64,000 nucleotides of DNA from a bacterium (lineage in GTDB: Bacteria > Hydrothermota > UBA3072 > JAPDKE01). Positions 13,849 through 43,340 of this stretch are shown here, one piece after another (the first letter of the stretch is position 1; the number at the start of each line of letters is the position of its first letter). A program made the translations under genes and the position numbers. A model generated the notes under the pieces. The model did not search any database and had not been told where the DNA came from. It saw only the letters and a program-made list of their open reading frames with translations. The stretch lies in NCBI GenBank assembly GCA_029258725.1, contig JAPDKE010000022.1, positions 10,881 to 74,880 on the forward strand, given 5' to 3'.

Positions 13849-15203
13849 TATTTCCCTCCTATCACAACGTTTCTTATTCTTATATGGGGGGCACCATCAG
13901 AGACAGGGAGGGGGAACTGTCCTCCCTTTCCACATCCACCAAGTCCCCCGTAGAGTTTGAGGTCGTTTCCTATTGCATCTATGTTCCTGAGGGTCTCAAA
14001 AACATTTCCCGTGAGAACCACATTCTTCAGCAATTTTGTGATTTTCCCCTTCTCTATAAGATATCCTCTTCTTGCAGAGAATGTGAACATCTCAAGTTCT
14101 GTCTGTCCACCGTATGCACCTATTGCGTATATTCCACGCTCTATGTCTGTGAGTTCCTCAAATGTCTTATCCCCGGGTTCTATGAAGGTGCAGGACATCC
14201 TCACAATAGGGGGATATGCAAAGTTTATGGCCCTTGCATTTCCAGTTGGTTCCTCACCCATCTTGTATGCGGTCTCTCTTGAATGAAGCCTTCCCACCAG
14301 GATTCCATTTTTTATAAGATACGTGCGCCGGGATGGAACGCCCTCGTCATCGTAGGGATAGTATCCCCTCTCTCCCTTTATTGTGCCATCGTCCACAATG
14401 GAAAGCTCATCAACCCCGAATCTTGTTCCAAGTTTCATTATCTCCCTTATCCTTTCATTCTCATAAATATGGTCAGCCTCCGAGAGATGACCAAATGCCT
14501 CATGGGCAAAAACCCCTGCAAGCTGAGGGTCAACCACCACGGTATAGACACCTGCGTCAACAGGTTCTGCTTTCAGCATCTCAACCGCCTCTTTACATAC
14601 ACGCTCTGCAACATCCTCAAGCCCGAGGACTGAATTCCATCCCTGTGTCCCTCCTACTGAATCAAAGGAAATCTGGACATTTGTTCCATCAACCGCAGTC
14701 GCAACCATCCGGACTCCCGAATAAACCCTCTCCTCCACTATCTCAGTCCCCTCGGTATTCACATAGTACCTTCTTATAAATGTATCCTCGTATCCAACGC
14801 GGGTTGTCTGTATTTTCTCGTGTCCCATAACAATCTGGTTGTACTTCCTCACAAGTTCGTGCTTTTCCTCAAGGGGGACTTTTCTCGGGTCATCAGGAAG
14901 AGAAAGCCTGACTTTATCCCTAACCGGTTTCACGGGAGCAAGCCCACTTTCCCTCTTCATTGTCTTTGCCTGACGCTCTGAGCGATGGAGCCAGTCCTCA
15001 AGGTCTTTTAACTTATTGAAGGTAACAAACCCCCATCCTCCCTTGTGAAAGGTTCTTATGCATCCACCAAAGGACCTTTTTCTTTCTGCTATCTCAAGTT
15101 CCTTCCCGGAATAGTATATCGCAGTCCCCTCCCTTTCCTCCACCCTTATTTCCGCATACTCAACCCCGCACTTTTCAAGAACCCTTTTTAACTCCTCTAT
15201 CAT
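13848..15203 (-). CDS. tldD: TldD family metalloprotease
   Basis: 451 aa containing HEAFGH (the HExxxH motif of TldD) and a Gly-rich C-terminus (GGLGGCGKGGQ). Confidence 0.85.
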   Translation of the reverse strand: MIEELKRVLEKCGVEYAEIRVEEREGTAIYYSGKELEIAERKRSFGGCIRTFHKGGWGFVTFNKLKDLEDWLHRSERQAKTMKRESGLAPVKPVRDKVRLSLPDDPRKVPLEEKHELVRKYNQIVMGHEKIQTTRVGYEDTFIRRYYVNTEGTEIVEERVYSGVRMVATAVDGTNVQISFDSVGGTQGWNSVLGLEDVAERVCKEAVEMLKAEPVDAGVYTVVVDPQLAGVFAHEAFGHLSEADHIYENERIREIMKLGTRFGVDELSIVDDGTIKGERGYYPYDDEGVPSRRTYLIKNGILVGRLHSRETAYKMGEEPTGNARAINFAYPPIVRMSCTFIEPGDKTFEELTDIERGIYAIGAYGGQTELEMFTFSARRGYLIEKGKITKLLKNVVLTGNVFETLRNIDAIGNDLKLYGGLGGCGKGGQFPLPVSDGAPHIRIRNVVIGGK

Positions 15204-16753
15204 CTTTTACCTCCCACGGTGAGGGTTTTCTTTTCCACAAACCTTCCCTTTCCTCCATCCTCCTCAACCACCATGTAAACGATATGAATTCCAGGATAGG
15301 CATTCTCCCCATCCCAGAGTATATACCTCTCACCACCACCCATGGTTCCATTATAGGAAAAAACCTGCCTTCCTTCAATATCAAAAACCTTCAAAGTCAC
15401 CCTATTTCTCACCCATGGAAGATTGAGAACAAAAACGCACCTTTCCTTTCCGGGAACAAAGGGGTCGGGAGAGATGGAAAGGTGTGCCTCGGCAGGCAGG
15501 ACGGGGGTGTAAAGAGAATTTTTCCTTCCCGGTGTTCCCCCTTCGGGTGAGGCTGAAATTCCCCAGTTTCCCGGAACATCTCCTTCAATATCAGGATTTA
15601 CCCGTTCAATGGAGATTTCTACCTCTGCCTCTTCATATTTTATTTTTTCAAAAATCATTTCCTCACATGAAAAGATTATTGAGTCTCCGTAATCGTTTAA
15701 AGAAATAGGGATTTCAAGGACAGGAGATGGGATGTTTCCAAAAATAGAAAAGAGGAGGTCCTTATCCTCTGTTAACACCAGGAAAGAATCAACCCGCACG
15801 TCCGGTATCTCTTCTCCATCCAGGGAAAACCCGGAAAGAAAGACAGGATAGTCTTTTTTATTGTAAACCTCCACCCACTCAACTTCAGAGCGTGGCATTA
15901 TCTCGTTTATCACAACCGGAGGGACCGGATCTCCCTCCTTTATCCACAGGGAGCGTGAGGATGAGGTTGTTTTTGCAATGACTTTATAAAATCCATCCTC
16001 AAACGGAATTTTAATCCTTAAAGTATCGGTCCCCTCAACCGAAATGGTTGAATGCCAGAGTTTCTTATCCCCTTCTCCATTCCAGTTCATATCCTCGTAT
16101 ATGGAGAGGGTATCCTCCCCGGGCCCTGTATTTACAAGAACAACCACAAATTCTCCGTCCTGATAAGAAAAATCTTCAATGTAAACGCCGGGAGGTTCAA
16201 AAACGGAGTTTTTCCTTCCCGGGGTGGAGCCGGTTGAGTCGGTGGATGGAGCCCAGTTTTCGGGAAAGTCCCCAAGATATGGATTTTTTCTCTCCATGGA
16301 TATTCCATCCCCTGGATTCCGGGGATAGAGGTATGTATCCACCGTATCTCCTGATGGGGATAAAAGGAAAAGGGAGTCTGTTGTTGCAAGCCCATCCCCG
16401 ATGGTTGTATTTGCAACGGTCAAAATTATGCATCCGGATGGAAAATCGTAAGGCATGACATTTTCTCCGTTTCCCGAGTCAGTGTATTCCGGGTCAAGAA
16501 CAACCGCGTAAAATCCGGGTGGAAGAATCATGGTTCCGGTGGCAGGGTCCGGGTCGGGGAAGAATGTATCCCAGGGAATCAAAGAGTCCACCGCATCTCC
16601 ATCGGATATTTTAAAACCCTCAAGGGAAAGTGTATCGTCGGTTTCATTGAATATCTCAACCCACTCGTTCCTGTCTTCGGGTTCCCCTGTTCCTGTTGTT
16701 CCCAGGGGATTTGCCATGACCTCATTTATCACAAGGGAAAAAATAAAAATCAT
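15200..16753 (-). CDS. Lamin-tail-domain (LTD) protein with two LTD repeats and a C-terminal FlgD-Ig/T9SS-type sorting-like domain
   Basis: Two INEVMANP / INEIMPRS motifs, each followed by ..GTPGRKNS, are LTD signatures. The C-terminal ~80 aa resemble CTD sorting domains. The N-terminus has no recognisable signal peptide (see findings). Confidence 0.6.
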   Translation of the reverse strand: MIFIFSLVINEVMANPLGTTGTGEPEDRNEWVEIFNETDDTLSLEGFKISDGDAVDSLIPWDTFFPDPDPATGTMILPPGFYAVVLDPEYTDSGNGENVMPYDFPSGCIILTVANTTIGDGLATTDSLFLLSPSGDTVDTYLYPRNPGDGISMERKNPYLGDFPENWAPSTDSTGSTPGRKNSVFEPPGVYIEDFSYQDGEFVVVLVNTGPGEDTLSIYEDMNWNGEGDKKLWHSTISVEGTDTLRIKIPFEDGFYKVIAKTTSSSRSLWIKEGDPVPPVVINEIMPRSEVEWVEVYNKKDYPVFLSGFSLDGEEIPDVRVDSFLVLTEDKDLLFSIFGNIPSPVLEIPISLNDYGDSIIFSCEEMIFEKIKYEEAEVEISIERVNPDIEGDVPGNWGISASPEGGTPGRKNSLYTPVLPAEAHLSISPDPFVPGKERCVFVLNLPWVRNRVTLKVFDIEGRQVFSYNGTMGGGERYILWDGENAYPGIHIVYMVVEEDGGKGRFVEKKTLTVGGKR

Positions 16754-23010: not shown

Positions 23011-23699
23011 TAATGCTCTTTTTCTTAACCGAGGTTGAAACTTTCTTAAATCCCTCCCTGGTTCTCAAGTTTGCACAGGAACTTGAAAGAGAAGGGGATA
23101 CATTCCGGGCAATCACGGAGTATAAAAGATATGCATACCTCGTTCCTGAAAAAAGGGACTCTATCTATTTCCATATCGTGCGTCTCTACATGCAGGAAAA
23201 ACTATACCCGAATGCACTTGATGTTCTGATAAAAATAAACAGGAGGGATACGGTATGGGAAAATCTTGCAGGATATCTTCTTCTCAAAACTGGAAATCAT
23301 GAGGAGGCGGGAAAATATCTTCATGGAAAAAAGAGGGCACTTTTCTTTGCATACACCGGAAAATACGACAGTCTCAAACTCATAATCCCTGTTGAACCTC
23401 CGGAGCTAAAGAGCAAACTCTATGCAGCATTTCTCTCTACCATTGTTCCAGGGCTTGGAAGGATGTATGCGGGAAGGGTGGGTGATGGTATCTTCTCTTT
23501 GCTTGCCATTTTTGGAACAGGAATGAATGCATATTACATGTATGAGAAGGGAAACAAACCCCTCTTTTACTTCAATGTTGCCCTTGCGGCCGGGCTTTAT
23601 CTTGGAGACATATACGGTTCCTGGGTTGCCGCAAAGAGGGAAAATGAAAAAAGAAAAAGGAAGTTCATTGAAAAGGTTGAAGAGGAAGTTCTGAAATGA
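23007..23699 (+). CDS. Hypothetical membrane protein with N-terminal TPR-like region and TM2-like Gly-rich helix pair
   Basis: 230 aa; the C-terminal LSTIVPGLGRMYAGRVGDGIFSLLAIFG is reminiscent of TM2-domain signatures. Confidence 0.35.
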   Translation: MIMLFFLTEVETFLNPSLVLKFAQELEREGDTFRAITEYKRYAYLVPEKRDSIYFHIVRLYMQEKLYPNALDVLIKINRRDTVWENLAGYLLLKTGNHEEAGKYLHGKKRALFFAYTGKYDSLKLIIPVEPPELKSKLYAAFLSTIVPGLGRMYAGRVGDGIFSLLAIFGTGMNAYYMYEKGNKPLFYFNVALAAGLYLGDIYGSWVAAKRENEKRKRKFIEKVEEEVLK

Positions 23700-24328
23700 T
23701 GCTGATTTTTTCATTTTTCGCAGATTCACTTTTTTCTCAAAAAGACTTTTACCGGGCAGCCTCAGAATACATGAGACTTGCCTCTGCAGGATTAATTCAT
23801 CCTGCTCAGGGATACCTGCGCGCCGGAGAGTGTTATTTTCTTTCCAGAAGATATAGAAGGGCTCAGGACTTCTTCTCCCTTGCACTTCTCTACGCGGAGG
23901 ATTCCCTTACGGAGAAAGAGGCACAGGAAAAACTGTGCCTTTCGCTCATTCTCTCAAAGAAATACGAAGAGGCACTGATTGCATCCACTGGAAAACTTAA
24001 AGAATACCTTGAGGAATACTTCAATCCTTCAGGAGAGAAAACCGCGGTTTTCCTTTCGGCAATTATTCCAGGCTCGGGGGCAATCCTTGAAGGGGAAGTT
24101 ATAAAAGGGGTTATATCCTTTGCAGTAAACGCATACTTTGCATATTCCACTTATGAGGCATGGAAGGACAGAAACTATATAATGTTTTTCCTGAACGTCT
24201 CCTCTTTCCTGAGATACTACTTCGGTAACCTCCGCTTCACCAGGAGTGTGGTGAGGAAGAAAAAGGAGAAAAAACTTCTTGAGAAAGTGAGAGCCTATAT
24301 TACCTCACAGGTGGAGCAAAACTTTTAA
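23696..24328 (+). CDS. Paralog of the preceding gene (TPR-like + TM2-like membrane domain)
   Basis: 210 aa with the same architecture (LSAIIPGSGAILEGEVIKGVISFAVNAY); ATGA overlap with the upstream gene. Confidence 0.35.
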   Translation: MMLIFSFFADSLFSQKDFYRAASEYMRLASAGLIHPAQGYLRAGECYFLSRRYRRAQDFFSLALLYAEDSLTEKEAQEKLCLSLILSKKYEEALIASTGKLKEYLEEYFNPSGEKTAVFLSAIIPGSGAILEGEVIKGVISFAVNAYFAYSTYEAWKDRNYIMFFLNVSSFLRYYFGNLRFTRSVVRKKKEKKLLEKVRAYITSQVEQNF

Positions 24329-24893
24329 CATCCTCCCTGTTGACCACAAGGCTCCTCACAACTCTTCCAAACGCCTCTCTCTGTCTTTTTGTCACCTTCC
24401 TCGGTGTTATTACTCCCTCCCTGTACACTATCCTGTATCTTATCTCCGGATACACCTTTATTTTTCCACCGACATACCTGAGGGGACATATTCTCAGGGA
24501 GACTATTTTGTATCCGCTTATATTCCCAGTATGTACAAGTTCAACCACATTTTCAGGATATGCCTTTTTTCCTTCATACACCCCAGGGTCAGGAGAAACA
24601 AATCTTCTCTTTACAGGGAATGAAATCGGAACCGGAGGCTGGGCAGGATAAGGGGTATATTTTCCTAGGACGTAGACACCGCTTGTCTCAATCTCTATAT
24701 CCTCAACCCTGGCATCCGGGGGAATTACAAACGAAATAACCTTTGCAGGAAGCATAGGTTTTCCAGTGTCAGTAAGAAAACCAAATCCCTTTATTCTGAA
24801 AAGGTCATATCCCTCAAGTTTTTCTACCCTTACCATACTTTCATCTAAAGTAAACATTCCTCCAACAAAGCCTGAAAAAATAAAGAACAGCAT
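24300..24893 (-). CDS. Stand-alone peptidase C25 (gingipain) propeptide-like domain protein with N-terminal signal anchor
   Basis: 197 aa. GKPMLPAKVISFVIPPDARVEDIEIE ... PDPGVYEGKKAYPENVVELVHTGNISGYKIVSLRICPLRYVGGKIKVYPEIRYRIVY matches the Propeptide_C25 pattern (PVLP...P.Y...yP...v......RG.rv..l.i.P..Y......l.vy..i...v.y). A strong RBS (AAAGGAGGAG) sits 5 nt upstream, immediately after the C25 stop. Confidence 0.5.
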   Translation of the reverse strand: MLFFIFSGFVGGMFTLDESMVRVEKLEGYDLFRIKGFGFLTDTGKPMLPAKVISFVIPPDARVEDIEIETSGVYVLGKYTPYPAQPPVPISFPVKRRFVSPDPGVYEGKKAYPENVVELVHTGNISGYKIVSLRICPLRYVGGKIKVYPEIRYRIVYREGVITPRKVTKRQREAFGRVVRSLVVNREDVKSFAPPVR

Positions 24894-24906
24894 TTTCTCC
24901 TCCTTT

Positions 24907-27900
24907 TTATTTTACAATGACTATCTTCTCTGTATCGGAAACTCTGCCGTTCTCTATTCTCAGGAAGTAAACGCCAGGATGCTCTATGGTGAATTTTGCC
25001 CTGTGATATCCAGCTTTATGAACCCCTCCCTTTATCTTCTTTACCTTCCTCCCAGCACCATCGTACAGGGTGAGACACACATATTCCTTTTGAGGAACGG
25101 TGTAGATAACCGTTACCGCGCCCGCTGAAGGGAGAGGATACACCCTCTCTATACCAAGTCTTAAAGCCACGGGGCCTGTGGACGCCAGAAACGGTCCATA
25201 TACCTTTTTCTTCCCTTCACCCACTGCCCTCAACCTGTAGAAGTAGGTTTTTCCCTTCTCAATATCTGTGTCAAGATAAGAGTATGTATGCCTTCCACTT
25301 CCTCGCCTTCCCGGAATCCGTGCTATAACCCTGTATTCCTTTCCTTTTTCCTTTCTTTCTATTTCCCACCTCTCCGTATTTTCATCCATAACAACCCATC
25401 TGAACATTATTCCTTCCCCGATGAAGTATGCCATAGCAGTTATAAAGTTGAGAGAAAGCGTGGTTTTTGCAAGAATGTATCCTTCATAAGGAAGGAGATT
25501 TTCTCCGGTAACCGTGACAAATACCGTCTCTTCCCTGGAGGGATTGACAGTAAAGACTGCCTCTCCATTTATATCCGTGGTATCTCTAAGATAAACATCA
25601 AAATCTCTGGTGGCAAGTGTAACAAGTGCATCCTCCACCGGAGCCTTTGCCGTGTAAACTTTTACCGTGCACTGATTTGCATTTCCCACCTCAATCTCCG
25701 CAGGATGTGTAACAGAAAGGGCAACAGGAATGTCAGTCCATATCGGTGTCTCAGGGTCTCCAAACAGGGTATGTTCATAAAGAACCCATCTGAAGTAATC
25801 ATCGGATGATGCCGTTGGAACCAGCTGGTCCTTTGCTGCAAAGAACACCTCTCCAAGACGATATAGAGAGGTCCCAAAGAGTTTCCGATAAAACCACACA
25901 CTGAGTTCTCCCGAGGGACCAAGGGCTCCCTCTGGTGACGAGTATCCCCATCCGTACCTTGTGTTCATTCCTGTTCCAATGGCGCAGGAGGTATTTGAGT
26001 TCACCATAACTTCCGCCACACAGTCATATCCCGACGATGAACCAGCCTCATCCAGTGCTCCCATGAAGCATGCTATGGAATTTACAAATATCGTGTTATT
26101 CGCAGGGTTTGTCTGGTTTCCCACATCGGAGTAGTAATAATATATCTCGCTTCCATAATCGTAGTAAATCCCATATTCATTTCCATGCCCCACCCAGTGT
26201 CCTATGCTGAATCCGGAATTTATGGAGTCAAACACAGTATATCGGGAAAGAAGCCCATAATCTTCATAAAGCTTTGCCTTCTTCCATGTATCCGGGACGG
26301 TATCGGCAATTGTGTCATTTATTCCATTCCCATGATTTGTGCTCCAGAGGTTTCCAACAGGAAGCAGTATCTTTCTTATATAATCCGGGTCAGGATTCTT
26401 CTCATAAGCCAGTATCTTCTGGACCATGTTGCTTATCTGGGTTGTATTTTTTACCGGGAATCTTCCCACGTAAACATCCGCATACATATCGACCTGGTCC
26501 GTTGTCTCGCCGTAAACTCCATCCCCATCATAATCCCATGTTCCATCAAGATCTGCATAGTAGAGGTCACATGGAATGGTGTCCTCATCGGAATAGTATC
26601 CGACACCACTTGTCATGCAGTATGCATCCCTTCTGGGCACATACTCCTCACCATGCTCAAAGTCGCACTGCCCTGCAAGGACAACATAAATAACTCCCCT
26701 GTTCACTGCATCTATTATGTAATTCCTTATTTTCTCTGCATTATCGGTTCCGCTGTAATACTTGTATATGGTCTCAACAGGCATTACCGCGGCAGGAACT
26801 CCTTTCTTCGTTTTCCACCATATGAGGTCTGAAAAGGCACTTCTGAATGCCTCAGGAGTTATTATCACATACTCAGTATCCCCTGGCGCTCCTCCACCTC
26901 CTCCACCAGATGCCCAGGAGAAACTCTGGGAATATATATTATCCGTCTCATCACTCTCATCCACGGTATCTGTCGTATCGGCATAGATTTTGAGAGTATG
27001 GGTTCCAGCGGTGAAGGTATCTATGTAATCTTCAACGTATGCATAGTAATTTGGAGGAAGTGTATCACAGTACCATCCTGCTATGGGAATGTCGTCACAA
27101 TAGAGATAAATGTAGAAGTAAAACGCAGTATCAGAACCATTGTTTATTATTGCCCAGTCAATGTAGGTTGTGGAATCCCCCATGAGATTTGGTCCATAAG
27201 TATGTGTGTTGGGTTCAGAAGATGGAACTATAGGACCATCCCATCCGTCAGGAGTATAATAGGTGAGATTTGGCATGCTTGCAGGTTCCCATTCAAGGCT
27301 ATCAATCTCAAATCCCCATCTGGTAACACTGTTATCGCTTTTAAGAACAACCTTCATGTAATTTCCGTCTCCCCAGCTGGTCCAGAAGTTGGTCCCCACA
27401 CTTCCGGTATATGTATTCACAAGATTTCCACTTCCATCGTAAACATATACACTGTCGTAGGAATGTTCTGTTTCAAGCCTTGCAAAGTGAAGTCTCATCC
27501 TTATATCTCCCGCATCCTGTGGTCCGTAAATGAAGTATGCCTGATTAGCATAATCTGGATAGTTGTGGGGAGACTCAACATTGTGCTCACGGAAGAAGTT
27601 GTACCAGTCAGAATACCATCCATAGTCGGTAATACTTCCATCGCTTTTAAGCCTTGTTGCTTCGGTTGGCTGTTTGGTATAATCCTGATTATATGAGGAC
27701 CATTCACTCCACACTCCCCTATGGGTTCCCGTCCAGGTATTGAGCACTGTTGAGGAATCTATGTCATAACAGAAAACCGAATCATAGGAATATTCCGTCT
27801 TTATGGAGTCGTAATAAAATATGAGTTCTCCAATCCAGTCATTTGCAGGACCAGACATGTAAACCGTGGTATCCATGTTATTGAGGTAGGGGTGAGGGGA

Positions 27901-28395
27901 CTCATAGGGTCCGCACCATCCACCAACCTGAATGTAGTTTACATCAAATCCATATTTTGTAACCGATGCGTCGCTCTTTATCCGCACGGTAAAAGTGGGT
28001 CCATCTCCCCAGGATGTCCATGTGGGACCATATGCACCCGTAAAGTAATCCACAAGATCTCCATCATTATCATAGACAAAAACAGTATCGTATCCGCTTT
28101 CAACATCTATCGTATCAAAGTGGATTGTCATCCATACATTTTCAGGAGGTCCATAAACCTTATAGGAAATGTCCATACTGTTCCAGTAGGGATGGGGAGA
28201 AGAAATGTACGCAGGAAGAACAGTACCCTTTGCCCTTTTAATTCTTTCAGTCACAGGATGAGGAGCCACAGGATAGATTGATTGCCCAAAGGACATCCGG
28301 ACCGGTTCCCTTATCTCCTTTACCACCAGGGGTTCCCTTACCTCCTTCACCTCCGTCCTTAAAATGGGTATGGTAAACAAAAGAATGTAAATCAT
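24907..28395 (-). CDS. Secreted C25-family (gingipain/PorU-like) cysteine peptidase with three N-terminal CUB-like domains and C-terminal Ig/FN3 + T9SS-type sorting domain
   Basis: 1162 aa. After the signal peptide come three ~95-aa repeats (ESPHPYPN...YGP...I.L.F..F.TE..YD.V.VYD..G.LV...TG...W.S..........KSD.SVT..GF...Y) that match the CUB fold pattern. The C25 catalytic domain follows (IITPEAF..WK..KG, YVVLAGQ, His in SIGHWVGHGNEYG, Cys in VNSIACFMGALD), and the protein ends with an FlgD-Ig/Por-type CTD (..GVYFLRIENGRVSDTEKIVIVK). Confidence 0.75.
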   Translation of the reverse strand: MIYILLFTIPILRTEVKEVREPLVVKEIREPVRMSFGQSIYPVAPHPVTERIKRAKGTVLPAYISSPHPYWNSMDISYKVYGPPENVWMTIHFDTIDVESGYDTVFVYDNDGDLVDYFTGAYGPTWTSWGDGPTFTVRIKSDASVTKYGFDVNYIQVGGWCGPYESPHPYLNNMDTTVYMSGPANDWIGELIFYYDSIKTEYSYDSVFCYDIDSSTVLNTWTGTHRGVWSEWSSYNQDYTKQPTEATRLKSDGSITDYGWYSDWYNFFREHNVESPHNYPDYANQAYFIYGPQDAGDIRMRLHFARLETEHSYDSVYVYDGSGNLVNTYTGSVGTNFWTSWGDGNYMKVVLKSDNSVTRWGFEIDSLEWEPASMPNLTYYTPDGWDGPIVPSSEPNTHTYGPNLMGDSTTYIDWAIINNGSDTAFYFYIYLYCDDIPIAGWYCDTLPPNYYAYVEDYIDTFTAGTHTLKIYADTTDTVDESDETDNIYSQSFSWASGGGGGGAPGDTEYVIITPEAFRSAFSDLIWWKTKKGVPAAVMPVETIYKYYSGTDNAEKIRNYIIDAVNRGVIYVVLAGQCDFEHGEEYVPRRDAYCMTSGVGYYSDEDTIPCDLYYADLDGTWDYDGDGVYGETTDQVDMYADVYVGRFPVKNTTQISNMVQKILAYEKNPDPDYIRKILLPVGNLWSTNHGNGINDTIADTVPDTWKKAKLYEDYGLLSRYTVFDSINSGFSIGHWVGHGNEYGIYYDYGSEIYYYYSDVGNQTNPANNTIFVNSIACFMGALDEAGSSSGYDCVAEVMVNSNTSCAIGTGMNTRYGWGYSSPEGALGPSGELSVWFYRKLFGTSLYRLGEVFFAAKDQLVPTASSDDYFRWVLYEHTLFGDPETPIWTDIPVALSVTHPAEIEVGNANQCTVKVYTAKAPVEDALVTLATRDFDVYLRDTTDINGEAVFTVNPSREETVFVTVTGENLLPYEGYILAKTTLSLNFITAMAYFIGEGIMFRWVVMDENTERWEIERKEKGKEYRVIARIPGRRGSGRHTYSYLDTDIEKGKTYFYRLRAVGEGKKKVYGPFLASTGPVALRLGIERVYPLPSAGAVTVIYTVPQKEYVCLTLYDGAGRKVKKIKGGVHKAGYHRAKFTIEHPGVYFLRIENGRVSDTEKIVIVK

Positions 28396-28522
28396 CCTGC
28401 ACCTCCCCTTTTTGGGATCTCTTTAATAAAATTATAAACAAATTTCGTGCCATTTTATAAGTTTTTGATTTTCAAGGACTAAATTTTGAAGTGGGTAATT
28501 TTTTCACACCTTTCATCTCATT

Positions 28523-29221
28523 TTACCGGAATTTTCTAAATTTTATTCCCTCTCCATCAATTACAGCATAGGTAAAGTTTTCTATCCAGTCCCCCAGGAT
28601 AATAAAATCCTTCTCATTTATTTTCACATGCCTCGGGAGATGAAGGTGCCCCACAATAACCGCATCCACCTCCTGGAGTTTTTTCCTCGCAAACTCCTTC
28701 AGCACCTCATATCTTTTTATCTCCTTTTCCTCCTCAATCCTGTTGAGTCTTGTCACAAGGTATCCAAGCCATGCTCCGAAGTCGGGATGGAGCAGGGAAA
28801 AAAGTTTAATCGGAACCCTCCCTCTGAGCAGTTTCTTCATGAACCTGCTCCGGTAACAGGGTTTCACATAGTCCCCGTGGATGAAAAATATTTTCTTTCC
28901 ATAAAGTTCAAACACCTTCCCTTCCCGGTATATCGGAATCCCCGCCCACAAGAAAGCATCCTTTATCCAGTAGTCGTGATTCCCAACCCATAACCTCACA
29001 TCCACCCCTTTTCTCTTCATATCGTAAAGCCTGTAAAGCAGAGGCAATGCAATTTTCGGCATAACACTCCGGTACTCAAAATAGAAATTGAATATATCGC
29101 CCAGGAGGAAAAGCCTCTCCCCCTCCTCCTCAACCATGTCAAGAAATTCAAATATTATTCTTTCCCTTTCTTTTTCTTTTATTCCTATCCCTATATGAAG
29201 GTCCGAAATGCAGAAGGTCAT
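28523..29221 (-). CDS. Calcineurin-like metallophosphoesterase (LpxH-like UDP-2,3-diacylglucosamine hydrolase family)
   Basis: 232 aa with DLHIG, GDIFN, GNHD, GHLH and GDW metallophosphatase motifs. Confidence 0.6.
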   Translation of the reverse strand: MTFCISDLHIGIGIKEKERERIIFEFLDMVEEEGERLFLLGDIFNFYFEYRSVMPKIALPLLYRLYDMKRKGVDVRLWVGNHDYWIKDAFLWAGIPIYREGKVFELYGKKIFFIHGDYVKPCYRSRFMKKLLRGRVPIKLFSLLHPDFGAWLGYLVTRLNRIEEEKEIKRYEVLKEFARKKLQEVDAVIVGHLHLPRHVKINEKDFIILGDWIENFTYAVIDGEGIKFRKFR

Positions 29222-30846
29222 TTCCGGTACCTGTGGGTTATGGGAACCCTTCTTCCAGAGCCAAACGCCTTTGATGAAACCTTTATGGCAAACGGAATCT
29301 GCTTCCTTTTGTACTCTGCTATGTAATACCTCCTCAGTATCTCTTCAACCACATCCCTGGGATACCCCTTCCCAACTATCTCCTCAACACTCATGTTTTC
29401 CTCAATGAGATGATAGAGAACGGGGTCAAGCATGGCATAGGGTGGAATATCGTCCTCGTCGCGCTGGTCCTTTCTCAGTTCTGCAGAGGGGGGCTTTTTA
29501 AATACCCTTTGGGGAATAATTTCCCTTTTCTCATTTAAAATCCTGGCTATCTCATAAACCTCGTTTTTGTAAAGGTCCCCGAGGGGAGCCATTGCCCCGA
29601 CCGTATCCCCATAAAGGGTATTGTATCCAATGCTTATCTCAGATTTATTTCCTGTTGCAAGAACAAGCAGCCTTTCCTTATTCGCATATGCCATGAGAAT
29701 ATTGCCCCTTATCCTTGCCTGGAGGTTTTCTTTGCTCAGGGTGTCAAGGGGGAACGATTTTTCAATCAGGGAAAGAAATTCATGGTAAATCTGGGATATT
29801 GGAACCTCAATGAGTTTTATCCCGAGTCTTTGTGCTATCTCATATGCATCCTCCCTGCTTTCAGGAGATGTGAAGTCTCCGGGCATGAAAATGGCGAGGA
29901 CATTTTCCTTTTCAAGTGCCTCAACAGCAAGGCAGGCAACCACAGCAGAATCAATCCCTCCACTCAATCCAAGAACCACTCCCCTGAATCCATTTTTTCT
30001 CACATAGTCCCTTATTCCCAGGACAATCGCATCCTTAACCTCCCGATACCCTCCCTCCTTCACCTCTATTCTTTCCTTTTTTTCCATATCCCATACAAAA
30101 AGCCCTTCTTTAAAGGAGGGGGCGAGAAAGACAATATCTCCATCCGGGTCGCATGCAAAACTTCCTCCATCAAAGACTATCTCATCCCATCCACCAACCA
30201 GGTTGACATAGAGAATGAATGTTTTATTCTCCCTTGCCCTTTTTGAAACAAGTCTTCTTCTTATCCCGGGCTTTCCCCTGTAAAATGGAGATGCAGAAAT
30301 GTTTATAATGAGTTCTGCCCCAAGGGATGCCTGCTCATCCACCGGACCCTCATCATACCATATATCCTCACATATGTTCACACCTATTTTTTTCCCTTTC
30401 ACCTCAAAAACACCCTTTTCTTCCCCCGGGGTGAAGTATCTCTCTTCATTGTAAACATCAAAAGAAGGAAGATGCTTTTTGAAATATTTACCAACCAGTT
30501 CCCCATCCCTTGCAAGAAATGCGGCATTGTAAAAGACCTCATCCTTCCGGTATCTTACGGAAGAAAGGTCGTAAACATTCGCATGTTTTCTTTCCCCCTT
30601 TTCTATGTATCCACCAATAACCGTTGCCTTTCCTGTCTTTTTTACCATTTTCTCAAGCCTCTCAAGCTGTTCCTCCACAAAGTATCTTCTGAGTATTATA
30701 TCCTTTGGAATGTATCCAGGGAGGGAGAGTTCGGGAAAGACAACCACATCGCAATCCCTTCCCTCCCTCATGTATTCTTCCATCTTTTTCCCATTCCCCT
30801 CAATATCACCGGGAACGGTGTTTATCTGCCCTATTCCTATCCTCAT
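29218..30846 (-). CDS. nadE: Glutamine-dependent NAD+ synthetase (N-terminal nitrilase/CN-hydrolase domain + NadE domain)
   Basis: The CN-hydrolase domain starts at MRIGIGQIN and contains the ICED motif. The NadE domain carries the SGGIDS PP-loop and the SFGIYTN-like region. I take the internal ATG at 30846; the track ORF extends to 30918. Confidence 0.85.
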   Translation of the reverse strand: MRIGIGQINTVPGDIEGNGKKMEEYMREGRDCDVVVFPELSLPGYIPKDIILRRYFVEEQLERLEKMVKKTGKATVIGGYIEKGERKHANVYDLSSVRYRKDEVFYNAAFLARDGELVGKYFKKHLPSFDVYNEERYFTPGEEKGVFEVKGKKIGVNICEDIWYDEGPVDEQASLGAELIINISASPFYRGKPGIRRRLVSKRARENKTFILYVNLVGGWDEIVFDGGSFACDPDGDIVFLAPSFKEGLFVWDMEKKERIEVKEGGYREVKDAIVLGIRDYVRKNGFRGVVLGLSGGIDSAVVACLAVEALEKENVLAIFMPGDFTSPESREDAYEIAQRLGIKLIEVPISQIYHEFLSLIEKSFPLDTLSKENLQARIRGNILMAYANKERLLVLATGNKSEISIGYNTLYGDTVGAMAPLGDLYKNEVYEIARILNEKREIIPQRVFKKPPSAELRKDQRDEDDIPPYAMLDPVLYHLIEENMSVEEIVGKGYPRDVVEEILRRYYIAEYKRKQIPFAIKVSSKAFGSGRRVPITHRYRK

Positions 30847-35410: not shown

Positions 35411-36462
35411 AAATTTTATTCCTTCCCCTTTACGGAATAGGGGATACCCTGATGACAACCCCTGCCTTGAGAATTTTAAAAAGGGAAAGACCTGAATGGA
35501 AGGTTCATGTACTTACCATGTTCAAGTCAACCCATGATGTCCTTTTGAGAAATCCATGTGTGGATGAAATAATATTTTTTCCTCTTCTTTCTTCACGATG
35601 GCAGGGATTGAAATTTGCCTTTTCTTTAAGAGGTGAGTACAGGATAACAATAAACCCATACCCATCCAATAGAAGGGACTATAACATCCTTGCCTATCTC
35701 ATTCATGCACCTTATCGTCTTGGGCATGAGTATAAACAGGACAATTTTAAGGAGCTTAATTTTTTGAAAAACATAAGGATAATGGAGGATGATTCACTCC
35801 ATAATGTTGAGGAGAATATAAGATTGCTTGAATTGCTGGGGATAAAATCCAGGGAAAAACTTCCACTTGAACTCCATCTTTCTCCAGAGGAGATTGCATG
35901 GGGGAGAAGATACCTGGAGGAGAGAGGGATTGAGGGATTTCTTGTTGGTTCCCATCCGGGGTCAAGTCTTTTCAAATACCACACGGCAAAGAGGTGGGAT
36001 AAGGAGAAGTTCAAAAAACTTTTTGACATAATTCTTGAGGAAAGAAAAGATGCGAGGATTTTGCTTTTTGGAGGAAAAGAGGAACTGGGATTGAGGGAGG
36101 AGATAAGAAAGATAAACCCTGAAAGAATGCATGTTATTGATACAAAAACCGTGAGAGAAACTGCCGCAATAATGAAAAACCTTTCCATTTTCATAACCAA
36201 CGACTCAGGGGTAATGCACCTTGCTGCTGCATGCATGGTCCCGATAGTTGCAATATTTGGTCCAACAAATCCAGGATGGGTGGGTCCATGGGGTGTTCCA
36301 TCAAGGGTTGTTAGGCTTGGACTTCCATGCTCTCCATGTTTCCGGTACTCTCCAAAACCCATGATATGCTGGGCAAAAAGGAACTATGAGTGTATGAGAA
36401 AAATAGAGGTGGAGGATGTTTACAGGGCTTATCGTTCCCTTACTCGTGAGCTGGGAATATGA
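35407..36462 (+). CDS. Glycosyltransferase family 9 (ADP-heptose:LPS heptosyltransferase-like)
   Basis: 351 aa with GT9 architecture (N-terminal IGD...PAL motif, C-terminal [11 protein letters not shown] and GP.NP). Confidence 0.75.
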
Positions 36463-38344
36463 GGTATTTTACAACCTTGACTCGGTTTATGCATTCGTTC
36501 CTGTAAACGGGAAGGTCCTGTGCGGTTCAAGGGGACTTTACCTTTATCCTGAGAGATTCATTCCTTTTGATGATAAAGTAAGGGACATGAAAATTTCAGG
36601 GGATTCGGTATGGGTCCTCACAAGAAGGAGACTCCTTCTCTATCGGGATGGAGAGGTTATGGAACTCATGAACTTTTCCCCTCCTCTATTTGAATCATCC
36701 CCTCTCTCCTTCGGGATTTATAAAAATAAGGCATGGGTTGGATTTGAGAATGGATACTGGGTGATGGACGGGAGTTTTTATCCCACAGATTTTCCCGTGT
36801 TTTCCATCCTTCCTGGAGAGTCTTTATGGATTGGTGGACCTGATGGGGTTTATAAGGGTGTTCCTGGAGAAATCCAGAAAATTTCAGGAATTGATGATAC
36901 TGTATTTTCTCTCATCAGGTTCAATGACACGCTTTTTGCCGGAGGAAAAGGTATATGGAGGTATGAGAATGGATGGATAAAGGAGGCTGATTACAGGATA
37001 AAGAGATTCAGGATTTATGAGAATCTTTTTGCAGTTGGAGATGATGGAGCGTATGAAAGAAACAATGGATGGAAACTGGTAAATGAGGGAGGAAATGATG
37101 TTCTTGTAAAAGATGGAGAGATATGGGTTGCACGCAATCAGGGAATCTGTGCCGGAAATGAGGAAATATTCCTTCCCTCTCCTGGAAGCGATACTTACAG
37201 GGACATGGAGGAGGACCCATACGGAAACATATGGTTTGTCCATCCCTGGTCTGAACCGGGTTCACGACCTTCAACCTTTTATTATTCCCTGAGGCTCACG
37301 GAATTCACAAAAAAAGGGGAATGGAGAGTTTACAACAGAAAAAGGGAATGGAATGCCCTTGCAAGATTTTATTCAATTGAGACAGATTCTCATGGTCTGT
37401 GGATTGGCCTCTTTCATGCATGGATAGGTTATGCAATACTTTTTATCCCCTATGACAGTATGTTTCCATCCCTGAGATTTACTCTCGAGACGGACGACCA
37501 GAACACAGGGCAGATTTTCCTCTTTAAGGATACCCTCTGGGTCTCCACCATTGTTGAATATGTGGTGATGAAATATTCGGTTGCACAGGATACCCCGGTT
37601 CTTCTGGATATGTTTGCCGGAAAGGATGAGTTTTACAATGTGAGGGCTATTGAAAGGGATGGGGATGGTAATATGTGGTTTGGTTCAAGCCATCCAAATG
37701 GTGGGGTTGGAATAACCGTGATAAAAAAGGATGGAGGGAAAATAAAAGTATCAGGGCTTCCATCCCCATGCATTCTTTCTCTTGCGTGGGACCCGAGGGG
37801 ATGGATGTGGGCTGCAACACTTTCAGGGCTTGTTAAAATAGAAGACTTTAAGGTTTCCGGGGTTTATCGGGATGAGCCTGTTTATGATGTGGAGGTTGAC
37901 CCTTATGGGTATGTCTGGTTTCTTTCATCAAGCGGTCTCTGGCGTCTCACTCCCTCCTTTGAAGAAGAATTCTTTCTCTCCGTGGAAACTGATATAGAAA
38001 AGGCGGGCCTGCTTTATGATTCCAGGGGAAGACTGTGGGCGGGAGGATGTTCAGGGCTTTACTGCATCTATCCTGATGAGAGTGAAAAAAAGCGTGAGGA
38101 ACTCACCATCTATCCAAATCCATGGATTGCAGGCAGGCACTCAGTCGTAAACATAACCTCTCCCGTGGGGGTTCAGGATGCAAGGATTCTCATTTATTCT
38201 CCATCGGGAGAAAAACTTTACGAGGGCTTTTCAGCCCGGAGAATATACTCCCTGGACCCTTCCTTCCTGAGTTCGGGAATTTACATTGTGGTTGCAATAA
38301 AGGATGGAAAGGCAGTAAAGGGAAAACTATGCGTGGTAAAATAA
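36416..38344 (+). CDS. Secreted beta-propeller (two-component-regulator-propeller-like) protein with T9SS-type C-terminal sorting domain
   Basis: 642 aa with repeated DG.IW..T..GL motifs (Reg_prop-like) and a C-terminal CTD (ELTIYPNPW...SGIYIVVAIKDGKAVKGKLCVVK). The N-terminus overlaps the GT9 gene by 47 nt. Confidence 0.55.
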   Translation: MFTGLIVPLLVSWEYEVFYNLDSVYAFVPVNGKVLCGSRGLYLYPERFIPFDDKVRDMKISGDSVWVLTRRRLLLYRDGEVMELMNFSPPLFESSPLSFGIYKNKAWVGFENGYWVMDGSFYPTDFPVFSILPGESLWIGGPDGVYKGVPGEIQKISGIDDTVFSLIRFNDTLFAGGKGIWRYENGWIKEADYRIKRFRIYENLFAVGDDGAYERNNGWKLVNEGGNDVLVKDGEIWVARNQGICAGNEEIFLPSPGSDTYRDMEEDPYGNIWFVHPWSEPGSRPSTFYYSLRLTEFTKKGEWRVYNRKREWNALARFYSIETDSHGLWIGLFHAWIGYAILFIPYDSMFPSLRFTLETDDQNTGQIFLFKDTLWVSTIVEYVVMKYSVAQDTPVLLDMFAGKDEFYNVRAIERDGDGNMWFGSSHPNGGVGITVIKKDGGKIKVSGLPSPCILSLAWDPRGWMWAATLSGLVKIEDFKVSGVYRDEPVYDVEVDPYGYVWFLSSSGLWRLTPSFEEEFFLSVETDIEKAGLLYDSRGRLWAGGCSGLYCIYPDESEKKREELTIYPNPWIAGRHSVVNITSPVGVQDARILIYSPSGEKLYEGFSARRIYSLDPSFLSSGIYIVVAIKDGKAVKGKLCVVK

Positions 38345-40681: not shown

Positions 40682-40903
40682 TCAAGGGGGTTTGTCCTTT
40701 TTTACCCTTTCTACCCTCCACTCTTCCTCTTTCCCCCTTACCCGGTAAAGGTTTCCATCCTCTCCCTTTAACAACCATTCCCTTTCGCCATTCTCAAAAA
40801 GAGAAGAGGAAAGAACCTCAACATAAATCCAACTTTCACCAACTTTTATCATCCTGGGATACTCATCCCCTTTTCCTCCTGAATAAAACCTCACCTCACT
40901 CAT
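40682..40903 (-). CDS. Possible small hypothetical protein (~73 aa)
   Basis: ORF in the 214-nt gap between the large peptidase-like gene and tRNA-Met. The longer track ORF (to 41023) overlaps the upstream gene. I see no recognisable domain and only a weak RBS. Confidence 0.2.
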   Translation of the reverse strand: MSEVRFYSGGKGDEYPRMIKVGESWIYVEVLSSSLFENGEREWLLKGEDGNLYRVRGKEEEWRVERVKKDKPP

Positions 40904-43340
40904 CTCCCTCAAGGGTGAACCTCCATGATAGTTTACCATTCTCCCACAAGAATTCAATTCCTGGCAGAATACCAAACTGACCAAAGGAAAACTTCGTCTC
41001 CAGAACCAATCTTGCACCCGCATATCTCTCTCTTATGTCCCTCTCCATTCCCTCAACCCCACCAAAGAGGGCGAAGAACATGTCTTCAAAGTAAACATTG
41101 GGATTCCACAGACCCAACTTGACCGGTAGAGGGATGGAAATTCCGCACCTCCCACCCCATGTTTCATCATCCCCTCCCCATGCATGGGCAAAAACCTTTA
41201 GATTTCCGAGCCACTTTCTTCCTCCAATATGCATTTCTGCCCTTCCCTTTCCTTCTTTTAAAAACCAGGTATACTCAGGAATCAAATAAAATGAAAGAGA
41301 AGGATAATTCCAGGCAAAGAAGAGATTTCCCTTTACCGTATCCGGTGAGGAAAAATAAGCCCGAACCCACAGAGAAGATAGCCCGTTTCTCATGCTTATT
41401 CTCAGAGGATACTCTCCTCCAGTCCGGTATGTGTAATTCCCTCCACGGTAAAATCCATAATACTCAAACACGAAAGGAGCGAGCATGGTGTTTATATAGC
41501 CAAATCCCACAACATTCTTTCCCGGGATTGTATCCGGAAGGATTACCAGGGCATATCCGTTGGTGAGGAGGACATCTGAGCCTGAGAGAAATACAAAGGG
41601 TAATATCCCACCCTCCATGGACGGAAGAACCATCCACAATCTCAACCAGGGGAAGAGGGTTAAGGCATCCTCAAGCAGTGGAGAGGCATTCCTGAAATAA
41701 GGTTTCCCCACCATCTTCTCTGCTTCCATCATTTCCAGGGATGCTTTTCCCTTAACCTCTGGAGTCTCACGGAACAGATGGATTCCATCCCCCTGTGGGG
41801 AGAAGAAATAGAGTTCACCATCAAGGATTACCGGGTCTCTGGCATAAACATAATCCGTGATTTTTTCAATTTCTCCATCGGGGTCCAAACGATAGATGTT
41901 GTATCTCCCACTGGTTGATGAGAAGTAAATGTATCCATCGTGGTAAAACGGGTCAACATCGGGACGGGATGAACAAATCAAAAGTTCAGACTCTCCATGA
42001 GAAATCCTGTAGATATCCCAGTTCTCACCCGGCATCCTTGCAACCATGAGAATTCCATCCTTCCCCTCCCTTATCTCCCCTATCTCAAGCCCTCCTGCAT
42101 ACCAGGGTTCTTCATCCCCGTACCGGTAAATTGCGTGTCTGGTTGCAAGGAACAGGGTATCCTTATAAAAGGTAAAGGAAACATAGGGGCCACGGGCAAT
42201 TATTCTTTCCGGTCCTCCAATTTCCTTCTCAACCAGAACCGCCTTCACTCCAAATCCCAGAAAACTTCTGTTTTCAAATCCCCTCCCCAGTTCTCCTTCC
42301 AGCACATAAAGTTTTCCATCGTGAATCACAGGTCTTGAGATAACCCATCCCACGGTCCGGTAAAGAGCCTCCTCCTTACAGGTATGGGGGTCAAAAAGGA
42401 CCACCTCCGTTATCCGTGCCACATCAAAGGGACCCCTTTTCTTACAGTATCTTCTAACATAACATATTCCCCAAGGACTCAGGGATGCAAGTTCACGGTA
42501 CATCCCCTTCTCAGTGAGTTTTCCCTGAGGAAATTTCTCTTTTCGTGCCTTGAACATCATCTCTCTCTTCCATATATTGTAAAGCATATCCAGGGTATGC
42601 CCGTAGGTAAAAATTGATGCAAGGTCTATTCCCAGGAGAGGAATAAGATTTCCTATTCCCGGAACCAGGGGATTCCAGGCATAATTCCCGAAAAATCGGG
42701 AAAAGGACTCCTCTCCATAAACCTCTGAGATCCACCTCATAAAACTCCCGCCATAGAAATATATCCTCTCCAACGGAAAGTCCGAGGCATCCGATGCTGC
42801 CCTCACAGGTGAGGTTATTTTACCCTCCCTTGCCTGAGCAAGAACCACCGCATCAAGATATCCATCGTTAAGCCTTCCTGCGTATGGGGAAATCCTTGAC
42901 TCGGCATAGACCGTGATTCCCTCAACCACCCATCCAGGAGAGTACATGTTTGGCTGGAAGAGGTCCCCCCATAAAAATCTCTGCAGGCTTGACAATCCTG
43001 CGGTATGGGTGAGGTGTGAGATGTGGGTGTATTCGTGAACGGATACAAGTTTCCACCAGTCGGGGGTTGAGGTGAGGATAAAGGGGGATGGAGGATGGGG
43101 AAGGAGGTGGATCTGGGGATTTATCGGGCTTGCAAATCCATTCGGCACAATTCCGGCATCTTCAATCACAACCGGAACATGTTTTGGAGAGTTACCGGTA
43201 AGGGAGTCAACCATTGGTTTGTAATGCTCAAGACAGGATATGGTCCACTCTGCCTCTTTCCTCAACTCCGGAGGATAGAATACCGTGAAGTGTTCGGAGC
43301 GGATTGCGTCCCAGAAAAGGTAAGAAAAAAGGAATATCAT
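40896..43340 (-). CDS. Large envelope protein with N-terminal HExxH zinc-metallopeptidase-like domain, central TolB-like beta-propeller and C-terminal beta-rich domain
   Basis: 814 aa. The zincin motif is VSVHEYTHISH. The central region has WD40/TolB-like repeats (YRISHGESELLICSSRPDVDPFYHDGYIYFSSTSGRYNIYRLDPDG). The start overlaps the MFS stop (ATGA). Confidence 0.5.
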   Translation of the reverse strand: MIFLFSYLFWDAIRSEHFTVFYPPELRKEAEWTISCLEHYKPMVDSLTGNSPKHVPVVIEDAGIVPNGFASPINPQIHLLPHPPSPFILTSTPDWWKLVSVHEYTHISHLTHTAGLSSLQRFLWGDLFQPNMYSPGWVVEGITVYAESRISPYAGRLNDGYLDAVVLAQAREGKITSPVRAASDASDFPLERIYFYGGSFMRWISEVYGEESFSRFFGNYAWNPLVPGIGNLIPLLGIDLASIFTYGHTLDMLYNIWKREMMFKARKEKFPQGKLTEKGMYRELASLSPWGICYVRRYCKKRGPFDVARITEVVLFDPHTCKEEALYRTVGWVISRPVIHDGKLYVLEGELGRGFENRSFLGFGVKAVLVEKEIGGPERIIARGPYVSFTFYKDTLFLATRHAIYRYGDEEPWYAGGLEIGEIREGKDGILMVARMPGENWDIYRISHGESELLICSSRPDVDPFYHDGYIYFSSTSGRYNIYRLDPDGEIEKITDYVYARDPVILDGELYFFSPQGDGIHLFRETPEVKGKASLEMMEAEKMVGKPYFRNASPLLEDALTLFPWLRLWMVLPSMEGGILPFVFLSGSDVLLTNGYALVILPDTIPGKNVVGFGYINTMLAPFVFEYYGFYRGGNYTYRTGGEYPLRISMRNGLSSLWVRAYFSSPDTVKGNLFFAWNYPSLSFYLIPEYTWFLKEGKGRAEMHIGGRKWLGNLKVFAHAWGGDDETWGGRCGISIPLPVKLGLWNPNVYFEDMFFALFGGVEGMERDIRERYAGARLVLETKFSFGQFGILPGIEFLWENGKLSWRFTLEGDE

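Follow-up and report, generated by a model that had tools for sequence, protein, structure and literature searches.

A C25 cysteine peptidase with three CUB repeats and a gingipain-type prodomain encoded by the adjacent gene

Background

How does a gingipain-type peptidase obtain a prodomain when its own reading frame has none? The question is raised by a two-gene locus in a 64,000-nucleotide (nt) stretch of DNA from a bacterium of the GTDB lineage Hydrothermota (NCBI GenBank assembly GCA_029258725.1, contig JAPDKE010000022.1, positions 10,881 to 74,880 of the forward strand). The whole of this stretch is called the window and positions are counted from its first letter. Gene 1 (24907..28395) encodes a C25 cysteine peptidase of 1162 amino acids (aa). 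Gene 2 (24300..24893) is the next open reading frame (ORF) downstream on the same strand and encodes a 197-aa protein. Both genes, and all features described within them, lie on the minus strand.

What is known of gingipain-type zymogens comes from a small number of fused enzymes in a single oral pathogen. No description of split C25 zymogen modules was found in the searchable literature. Literature linking CUB domains to type IX secretion, or WOR-3 to either gingipains or type IX secretion, was likewise searched for without result, as were mentions of Propeptide_C25 (PF08126). An earlier note on this DNA, made from the sequence alone, described gene 1 as a C25 peptidase with CUB-like repeats. 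It missed the most distinctive feature of the locus, namely that the N-terminal prodomain of the family is absent from the peptidase ORF and is encoded by the next downstream gene.

Here we describe the two genes, the recurrence of their arrangement in related loci and the structural features of the CUB repeats. We consider it reasonably probable that the locus pairs a C25 protease, carried as cargo by the type IX secretion system (T9SS), with a prodomain acting in trans as chaperone or inhibitor, the CUB repeats serving as a ligand module. The alternatives are weighed against this reading, and the locus is compared with known systems of proteases and their partners.

Results and discussion

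A C25 peptidase without a prodomain in cis

The product of gene 1 consists of a short signal-like N-terminus, a linker, three CUB repeats, a CARDB domain, the C25 catalytic domain, an Ig-like domain, a beta domain and a T9SS C-terminal domain (CTD). A 1162-aa protein 99% identical to it is present in an independent assembly. The catalytic domain (aa 509-883; 25747..26871) matches Pfam Peptidase_C25 (PF01364) with 194.2 bits against a cutoff of 23, over 372 of the 374 model positions. Its dyad consists of His737 in GHGNEYG (26185..26187) and Cys776 in SIACFMG (26068..26070). In the phmmer alignment to RgpB (4ief_B, 1cvr_A), vGHGne falls on tGHGse with His211, and siACfmG falls on dvACvnG with Cys244. 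Chains of RgpB are the only solved structures reached by sequence search with the gene 1 product, at low similarity (E 1.5e-6). A possible S1 aspartate was considered against RgpB Asp163 and set aside, as the alignment is too weak to use there.

The CARDB region (26908..27288) contains a Pfam match at aa 407-489 (PF07705; 34.9 bits, cutoff 22.7) and is joined to the catalytic domain by a linker of six glycines (aa 497-502; 26890..26907). The protein ends in a T9SS type-A CTD (aa 1085-1162; 24910..25143), which matches TIGR04183 over aa 1085-1160 with 37.0 bits against a cutoff of 23 and Pfam Por_Secre_tail (PF18962) with 25.9 bits, just below the cutoff of 27. The CARDB-like segment, the C25 domain with this His and Cys, and the T9SS CTD had all been named in the earlier note, and all three are borne out. 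The Ig/FN3-like domains that it placed behind the catalytic domain fare less evenly. An Ig-like domain is present at aa 890-970 (25486..25728), where the Peptidase_C25_C match is weak (18.2 bits, below the cutoff of 25) and the region aligns with the immunoglobulin superfamily region of RgpB. The FN3 part is unconfirmed: aa 971-1084 (25144..25485) match only PhoD_N at E 0.2 and are left unassigned, this region being homologous to the same region of the relatives P0002, P0003 and P0004.

Zymogens of family C25 normally carry a prodomain in cis, and the Pfam scan gave no Propeptide_C25 match inside the 1162-aa ORF. A strong ribosome-binding site (RBS), GGGGAGGTG, lies 5 nt before the ATG, and there is no other in-frame start upstream. 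The intergenic region in which this RBS lies (28396..28522) holds no prodomain coding sequence, and the next gene upstream encodes a Metallophos phosphoesterase.

The first 12 residues of the gene 1 product (MIYILLFTIPIL; 28360..28395) are hydrophobic and uncharged and probably form a minimal signal peptide. They are followed by a charged linker (aa 13-61; 28213..28359), delimited by comparison with P0003, P0004 and P0006. In its C-terminal half the linker is homologous to the one found behind the prodomain of fused relatives (...APHP...KGTV..AYISSPHPY), and from approximately aa 40 (...APHPVTERIKRAKGTVLPAYISSPHPY) the gene 1 product corresponds to this post-prodomain linker as found in P0003. 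When aa 1-61 as a whole were compared by BLAST with ten relatives, four gave short matches; the remaining six, P0003 and P0006 among them, gave none. The linker also contains a 27-nt tandem duplication (28304-28354), which encodes VKEVREP and VKEIREP.

The prodomain is encoded by the next gene

A 13-nt spacer, AAAGGAGGAGAAA (24894..24906), separates the stop codon of gene 1 from the ATG of gene 2 and contains the RBS of gene 2, AAAGGAGGAG. The 197-aa product has a short signal-like N-terminus (MLFFIFSGFVGG) and no CTD, and it ends in ...APPVR, the point at which the prodomain of the relatives ends. It is 34% identical to aa 22-214 of the fused relative P0006 (E 4e-39). P0062, an orthologue of gene 2 with 76% identity, has a precomputed PF08126 match.

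The predicted structure agrees with this assignment. The AlphaFold2 (AF2) model of the gene 2 product has a mean predicted local distance difference test score (pLDDT) of 93.4. In a Foldseek search of the PDB it matches only the prodomains of RgpB (4ief chains A, C, E and G; template modelling (TM) scores of 0.69-0.71) and Kgp (5mun), all other matches having E values above 0.7. The inhibitory loop of RgpB (Lys121-Tyr135, with Arg126) was mapped by hand onto the loop PVPISFPVKRRFVSPDPG of gene 2, a mapping that is unreliable without a structural alignment. The basic KRR of this loop (PRR in the related locus L004) is not conserved in other stand-alone prodomains. Because of both points no claim about specificity is made.

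Gene 2 is under purifying selection. Between the window and L004, the number of nonsynonymous substitutions per site (dN) is 0.16 and that of synonymous substitutions (dS) is 0.99, giving a dN/dS of 0.16. The corresponding values for the C-terminal part of the peptidase gene are dN 0.13 and dS 1.22. The low dN/dS of gene 2, near that of the peptidase gene, indicates that gene 2 is maintained by selection.

The sequence around the two genes gives no sign of how the prodomain came to its present place. A repeat scan of 23500-29300 found neither flanking repeats nor scars of a mobile element by which a relocation could be explained. Promoter and terminator scans of the same region gave sites no more numerous than in shuffled sequence, with none in or beside the spacer. 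The 3' end of gene 2 overlaps a convergent 210-aa gene (23696-24328, plus strand; weak TPR and DUF5683 matches) by 29 nt (24300-24328), and this overlap is also kept in L004.

Recurrence of the split in related loci

Homologues come almost entirely from WOR-3 and TA06 metagenomes. In most of these relatives a signal peptide is followed by Propeptide_C25 (approximately aa 1-200), a linker, three CUB repeats, one or two CARDB domains, the C25 domain and a CTD. A scan of genome contigs returned only WOR-3 relatives with fused genes. At least ten protein clusters of WOR-3 and TA06 metagenome origin combine CUB with C25. The earlier note had called this architecture unusual. It is undescribed in the searchable literature and its bearers are unstudied, yet it is recurrent in WOR-3/TA06-like genomes. 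The list of homologues also includes bacterial proteins in which a Pfam CUB domain is paired with an S8, C1A or C14 peptidase domain.

The prodomain was followed separately with a phmmer search of 1.84 billion representative proteins, which gave 2554 matches to the gene 2 product. Among the best 150 of these, nearly all alignments are N-terminal and mostly in far longer proteins. A separate cluster consists of stand-alone prodomain proteins of 208-215 aa that begin with a signal peptide and stop just at the boundary of the prodomain.

At all nine examined loci of relatives whose peptidase lacks the prodomain there is an adjacent prodomain ORF, truncated in one case. The spacing between the two genes ranges from a 4-nt overlap to 13 nt, except in L015, where it is approximately 200 nt. 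The order of peptidase then prodomain is found in three lineages. In L012/L013 the gene for a 958-aa CARDB-C25-CTD protein is followed after 10 nt by a 213-aa prodomain, and in L016 the gene for a 476-aa C25 protein overlaps a 210-aa prodomain ORF by 4 nt. The reverse order occurs in several other lineages. In L009 a 208-aa prodomain stands 2 nt before the gene for P0004, a CUB-bearing protein of 1342 aa with its own signal peptide; the prodomain also precedes the peptidase in L015, L017, L018 and L019.

The truncated case is that of L010/L011, where a prodomain remnant of 133 aa lies upstream of, and beside, the gene for P0015, with an insertion sequence (IS) element nearby. In L010 (3105-5222) this ORF lacks the signal peptide and the first strands, and a DDE transposase gene lies directly upstream of it. 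This position of the transposase gene suggests IS-mediated decay of the prodomain gene in the P0015 lineage.

In a neighbour-joining tree of the catalytic domains, fused genes and genes with the prodomain split off upstream or downstream are interspersed, which indicates several independent fission or permutation events. The modules also differ in their conservation. The three CUB repeats (27289-28212) are 64-67% identical to those of the window in all CUB-bearing relatives, and the catalytic domains (25747-26871) are 35-65% identical, with one group at 50-65% and another at 35%. The gene is a mosaic. Its accessory module has diverged less than its enzyme, which suggests cassette exchange. P0016 (822 aa) has a signal peptide, the linker, three CUB repeats, two CARDB domains and a CTD with no peptidase domain; the CUB-CARDB cassette thus exists also as stand-alone T9SS cargo.

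Structural features of the CUB repeats

The three tandem repeats that the earlier note had likened to CUB domains are confirmed as such by profile and by predicted fold. Repeat 1 (aa 62-158; 27922..28212), repeat 2 (aa 162-268; 27592..27912), which has an insertion of approximately seven residues, and repeat 3 (aa 271-369; 27289..27585) are each about 100 aa long and align with one another, repeats 1 and 2 being 41% and 33% identical to repeat 3. With the Pfam CUB model (PF00431; cutoff 21.4 bits) the protein scores 42.2 bits (E 1.1e-10). Individual scores were returned for two of the three repeats, the best stretch being aa 274-364 in repeat 3. The relatives score 23-37 bits with the same model.

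Modelled by AF2 with 11 homologues, aa 55-375 form three all-beta units with the CUB beta-sandwich (jelly-roll) fold (pLDDT 78.6). Foldseek against the PDB places cubilin (CUB5-8), enteropeptidase, neuropilin-2 and PCPE-1 in the ten best matches, followed by MAP-1, C1r, C1s, MASP-2 and Neto2 (E 1e-10 to 1e-5), so that eukaryotic multi-CUB proteins come first. Sequence searches reached less far. Single-sequence phmmer found neuropilin-2 alone, at E 0.5. When a profile of 20 single repeats was searched against PDB sequences, it found only WD40 designs and no CUB chain. The WD40 matches are spurious because a short repeated motif (D.V.vYD.nG.ll.t..G) is summed over many blades.

The canonical CUB domain has four cysteines, which form two disulfides. 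As had been seen from the sequence, they are missing here: repeats 1 and 3 have no cysteine and repeat 2 has one, and the Cys position of the CxYD motif is Gly or Ser. On the strength of the profile matches and the structural model, the window repeats are true CUB domains that are free of disulfides.

Twelve residues are invariant in the 20 repeat copies of the window protein and its relatives (S5, H7, Y9, G21, E40, D44, Y49, D50, G61, W71, D84 and G91). The repeats were aligned by MAFFT with a sequence that we take to be that of human C1s CUB1, and whose numbering is self-consistent; its Ca2+-site residues are presumably Tyr17, Glu45, Asp53, Asp98 and Ser100. The first four are matched in all 20 copies and Ser100 in 19 of them, with an hhalign E value of 0.09. 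In this alignment, E40, D44 and D84 of the repeats fall on Glu45, Asp53 and Asp98. The window CUBs are therefore candidates for the Ca2+-binding type, with metal and ligand binding both predicted from sequence. In tandem CUBs of known function the Ca2+ loops make up the ligand-binding site (PMC8051872).

Export and genomic surroundings

Both N-termini of the locus resemble the starts of other predicted exported proteins of the window, including the OmpA-like protein and the CTD proteins. Many of these begin with M[IL][FY][ILF]... and a very short, uncharged, hydrophobic stretch without a Lys/Arg n-region, as in MIYLVYVLSFPSAASG of the OmpA-like protein and in MIFIFSLVINEV. Such leaders are found at 50236-52443 (plus), 36416-38344 (plus), 59164-61665 (minus), 40896-43340 (minus) and 15200-16753 (minus), as well as at the starts of gene 1 (28360-28395, minus) and gene 2 (24858-24893, minus). 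The S8 peptidase is the only protein with a classic MRRLLLL leader. The short uncharged leader may be a minimal signal peptide specific to the lineage.

Other large secreted proteins of the window are an S8 subtilase of 1270 aa with a FlgD_ig-type C-terminal domain, two proteins with a TIGR04183 CTD above the cutoff and a beta-propeller repeat protein with a sub-threshold CTD (45181-48993 (minus), 61716-63944 (minus), 36416-38344 (plus) and 59164-61665 (minus)). The OmpA-family protein (735 aa; 50236-52443, plus) gives a partial match to the T9SS PorE model (93.8 bits, cutoff 600), and this is the sole signal found in the window that resembles T9SS machinery. An LPS (lipopolysaccharide) heptosyltransferase is also encoded in the window and, together with the OmpA-like protein, points to an outer membrane. 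The neighbouring genes are of a housekeeping kind, encoding the Metallophos phosphoesterase, NAD synthase, YidD, a permease, hydrogenase, pyruvate:ferredoxin oxidoreductase (PFOR) and TldD/PmbA.

Weighing the alternatives

A number of observations weigh against a cargo protease paired with a trans-acting prodomain. The Propeptide_C25 (PF08126) score of gene 2 is 21.3 bits, marginally below the cutoff of 22. Both putative signal peptides are only about 10-12 aa long and have no basic n-region, and no T9SS core gene (porV, porU, sprA, gldKLMN) was recognised among the window ORFs that were scanned, about a dozen shorter ORFs lying outside the scan. The Ca2+-site pairing depends on the presumed C1s sequence and on MAFFT, with weak hhalign support. 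The prodomain ORF of L010/L011 is truncated. Lastly, L001 (ERZ650341), whose peptidase gene is 99% identical to gene 1, diverges from the window right after the ATG of gene 2. Past this shared ATG (from window position 24891 downstream) it encodes an unrelated membrane protein (MAKEKIPEE...; L001 3529-3846). L001 may be a strain variant in which gene 2 was replaced at the start codon, or it may be a chimeric contig of low coverage. Should it prove not to be chimeric, that strain can do without an adjacent prodomain gene or carries the gene elsewhere.

One alternative is that the split and permuted order is an artefact of assembly or binning, the prodomain, CUB and C25 parts being in reality fused in one gene as usual. 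The window does come from a metagenome-assembled genome, and the assemblies are not fully concordant, as L001 and L003 diverge from it inside the locus. Nevertheless, the junction of peptidase and prodomain is present not only in the window but in two other samples, L002 (the Logan assembly of SRR22064148) and L003 (ERZ25515926). It recurs in L004, of 77% nucleotide identity, with the same arrangement, a different junction sequence and an intact ORF of 197 aa. Gene 1 is preceded by a normal intergenic region with an RBS and then by a conserved neighbour gene, no repeats flank the prodomain ORF, and the same gene order occurs in the unrelated loci L012/L013 and L016. An artefact is thus very improbable. 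Another possibility is that the arrangement is real and gene 2 a non-functional remnant. It would be what is left of the 5' end of a truncated tandem C25 copy, lying by chance behind a C25 gene whose own prodomain had been lost independently. C25 paralogues are numerous in the WOR-3 and TA06 lineages, domain rearrangement is frequent in the catalytic-domain tree, a decayed prodomain does stand beside P0015 with an IS element nearby, and in L001 the ORF has been replaced after its start codon. A remnant would hardly be expected to stay intact at the same length and with a dN/dS of 0.16 at a dS near 1, as gene 2 does in comparison with L004, nor to retain a consensus RBS together with a signal-like N-terminus. 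Like many stand-alone homologues, gene 2 ends exactly at the domain boundary, and a prodomain-less C25 gene is paired with an adjacent prodomain ORF at nine of nine relative loci, in both orders and tightly spaced except in L015. We regard a remnant as quite unlikely.

Two further alternatives concern what the products do. The size of gene 1 (1162 aa) had invited the comparison with PorU, the C-terminal signal peptidase (sortase) of the T9SS, which is also a C25 peptidase and close to it in length. T9SS_sortase is the top NCBIfam match by name, and PorU (6za2_A) is even in the Foldseek list for the CUB model, far down at rank 38. The comparison does not hold. With the PorU model NF033707 the score is 64.6 bits where 420 are required, and the match is confined to the catalytic core (model positions 365-715); the PorU2 N-terminal model gives 13.3 bits against 450. 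The type-A CTD of gene 1, above its threshold, is of the cargo type, the fold of the prodomain partner matches RgpB and Kgp rather than PorU, RgpB is the sole solved relative by sequence, and the many paralogous family members per metagenome fit a cargo protein rather than a single-copy machine part. The PorU score far under its cutoff and the cargo-type CTD together make gene 1 a T9SS substrate and not a sortase, which leaves the latter scarcely credible. The other alternative is that the prodomain is chiefly a self-protection inhibitor against premature activity in the periplasm, in the manner of Spi and the staphostatins, and is needed neither for folding nor for regulated latency. Adjacent, co-transcribed pairs of protease and inhibitor are known in SpeB-Spi, where Spi is an analogue of the propeptide, and in staphopain-staphostatin (PMC2873492), and Rgp prodomains inhibit in trans at nanomolar level. 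SpeB, however, keeps its own propeptide in cis and the window peptidase has none, so the free prodomain is its only copy and may be needed for folding too. A role in self-protection is also a shade of the cargo-and-prodomain reading more than a rival to it; in its strict form we find it rather unlikely, though the least so of the four alternatives.

A model of the two-gene zymogen

The pairing of a cargo protease with a free prodomain can be put into a model. The locus would be a two-gene operon of an uncultured diderm bacterium, probably related to WOR-3. The product of gene 1 would be exported by Sec and then, by way of its type-A CTD, through the T9SS to the cell surface or the medium. There, the cysteine-free CUB repeats and the CARDB domain would recognise a ligand or substrate, presumably with the help of the putative Ca2+ site, and so target the protease to protein or surface material. 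The product of gene 2, the approximately 200-aa prodomain of the family, would be exported by Sec as a free periplasmic protein and would bind the catalytic domain in trans. It would act as a folding helper, as a latency inhibitor until the enzyme leaves through the T9SS, or as both. Binding in trans has a precedent, as the prodomains of Rgp are nanomolar inhibitors in trans. In the 4IEF structure, too, prodomain and mature enzyme are associated without a covalent bond.

A broader proposal covers the family, and as a whole it is offered tentatively. According to this proposal, the C25 peptidases of WOR-3-like bacteria have undergone repeated gene fission into a two-gene zymogen, in which a free, CTD-less periplasmic prodomain folds the enzyme, keeps it inactive and stays behind when the enzyme is exported by the T9SS. 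The order of peptidase then prodomain would have arisen independently at least three times. The conserved cysteine-free CUB triplet, which occurs also without a peptidase, would represent a genuine module for Ca2+-dependent ligand recognition that originated in prokaryotes.

If true, a safety catch that is retained in the periplasm would be new for T9SS cargo. A recurrent natural split in both orders, with purifying selection on the free prodomain, is genomic evidence that a prodomain can work as an independent protein. Two separate genes make a simple system in which to ask whether the prodomain is a foldase, an inhibitor or both, how latency is released during T9SS export, and how pairs of prodomain and enzyme co-evolve, the last question being relevant to the design of gingipain inhibitors based on prodomains. 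The cysteine-free CUBs bear on the origin and function of this domain outside animals and on how uncultured sediment bacteria target extracellular proteolysis.

Comparison with known systems

The closest known enzyme is RgpB of Porphyromonas gingivalis (MEROPS C25; 1CVR, 4IEF). It shares with the window protein the C25 fold, the aligned His and Cys, an Ig-like domain behind the catalytic domain and a T9SS CTD, and its prodomain of about 200 aa has the same fold (TM approximately 0.7). In RgpB this prodomain is fused N-terminally, whereas in the window it is a separate downstream gene. RgpB has neither CUB nor CARDB; the window protein has both. From the linker on, the fused relatives (P0002, P0003 and P0006-P0010; L005 and L006) agree with the window protein in their modules and module order, with a CUB triplet of 64-67% identity and catalytic domains up to 65% identical. 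They differ in carrying the prodomain in cis at the N-terminus, where the window has it split off and placed behind the gene. At NCBI they are named only 'C25 family cysteine peptidase' or 'hypothetical protein'.

The CUB repeats invite a comparison with the eukaryotic CUB proteases (C1r, C1s, the MASPs, BMP-1/tolloid, enteropeptidase and ADAMTS13), in which tandem CUBs are likewise attached to a protease. In these enzymes the CUBs mediate ligand or substrate recognition or latency (PMC8051872). The eukaryotic enzymes are serine or metallo proteases, whereas the window enzyme is a cysteine protease. Its CUBs lack both disulfides, have a shorter loop between the Glu and the Asp, stand N-terminal to the catalytic domain and are part of a T9SS cargo protein. 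A secreted bacterial protease with a Pfam CUB domain, the subtilisin-CUB protein NP_967057.1 of Bdellovibrio bacteriovorus, was described in 2008 with a role that was 'not clear' (PMC2605481). That protein belongs to the serine proteases and has just one CUB, at its C-terminus; it has no C25 domain and raises no question of a prodomain.

The two-gene organization has parallels of its own. In SpeB-Spi and staphopain-staphostatin, as in the window, the gene of a cysteine protease adjoins a small gene; in those systems the protease is secreted, and the small gene encodes a dedicated inhibitor and is co-transcribed with that of the protease (PMC2873492). The proteases belong to families C10 and C47 and not to C25. 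Spi and the staphostatins act in the Gram-positive cytoplasm, whereas the partner in the window appears, from its N-terminus, to be exported. SpeB keeps its own propeptide and gene 2 encodes the only prodomain of the window enzyme.

In the operons of lipase and lipase-specific foldase (lipA-lif/lipH) of Pseudomonas and Burkholderia, the gene of the enzyme is followed by that of a periplasmic steric chaperone. The foldase is needed before the lipase is secreted across the outer membrane and remains in the cell. The gene order is that of the window locus, and the periplasmic logic is the one proposed here for the C25 peptidase and its prodomain. The folds are unrelated, however, and secretion is by the type II system (T2SS) and not the T9SS. 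Lif, moreover, is not derived from a lipase propeptide, whereas gene 2 encodes the prodomain of the peptidase family itself.

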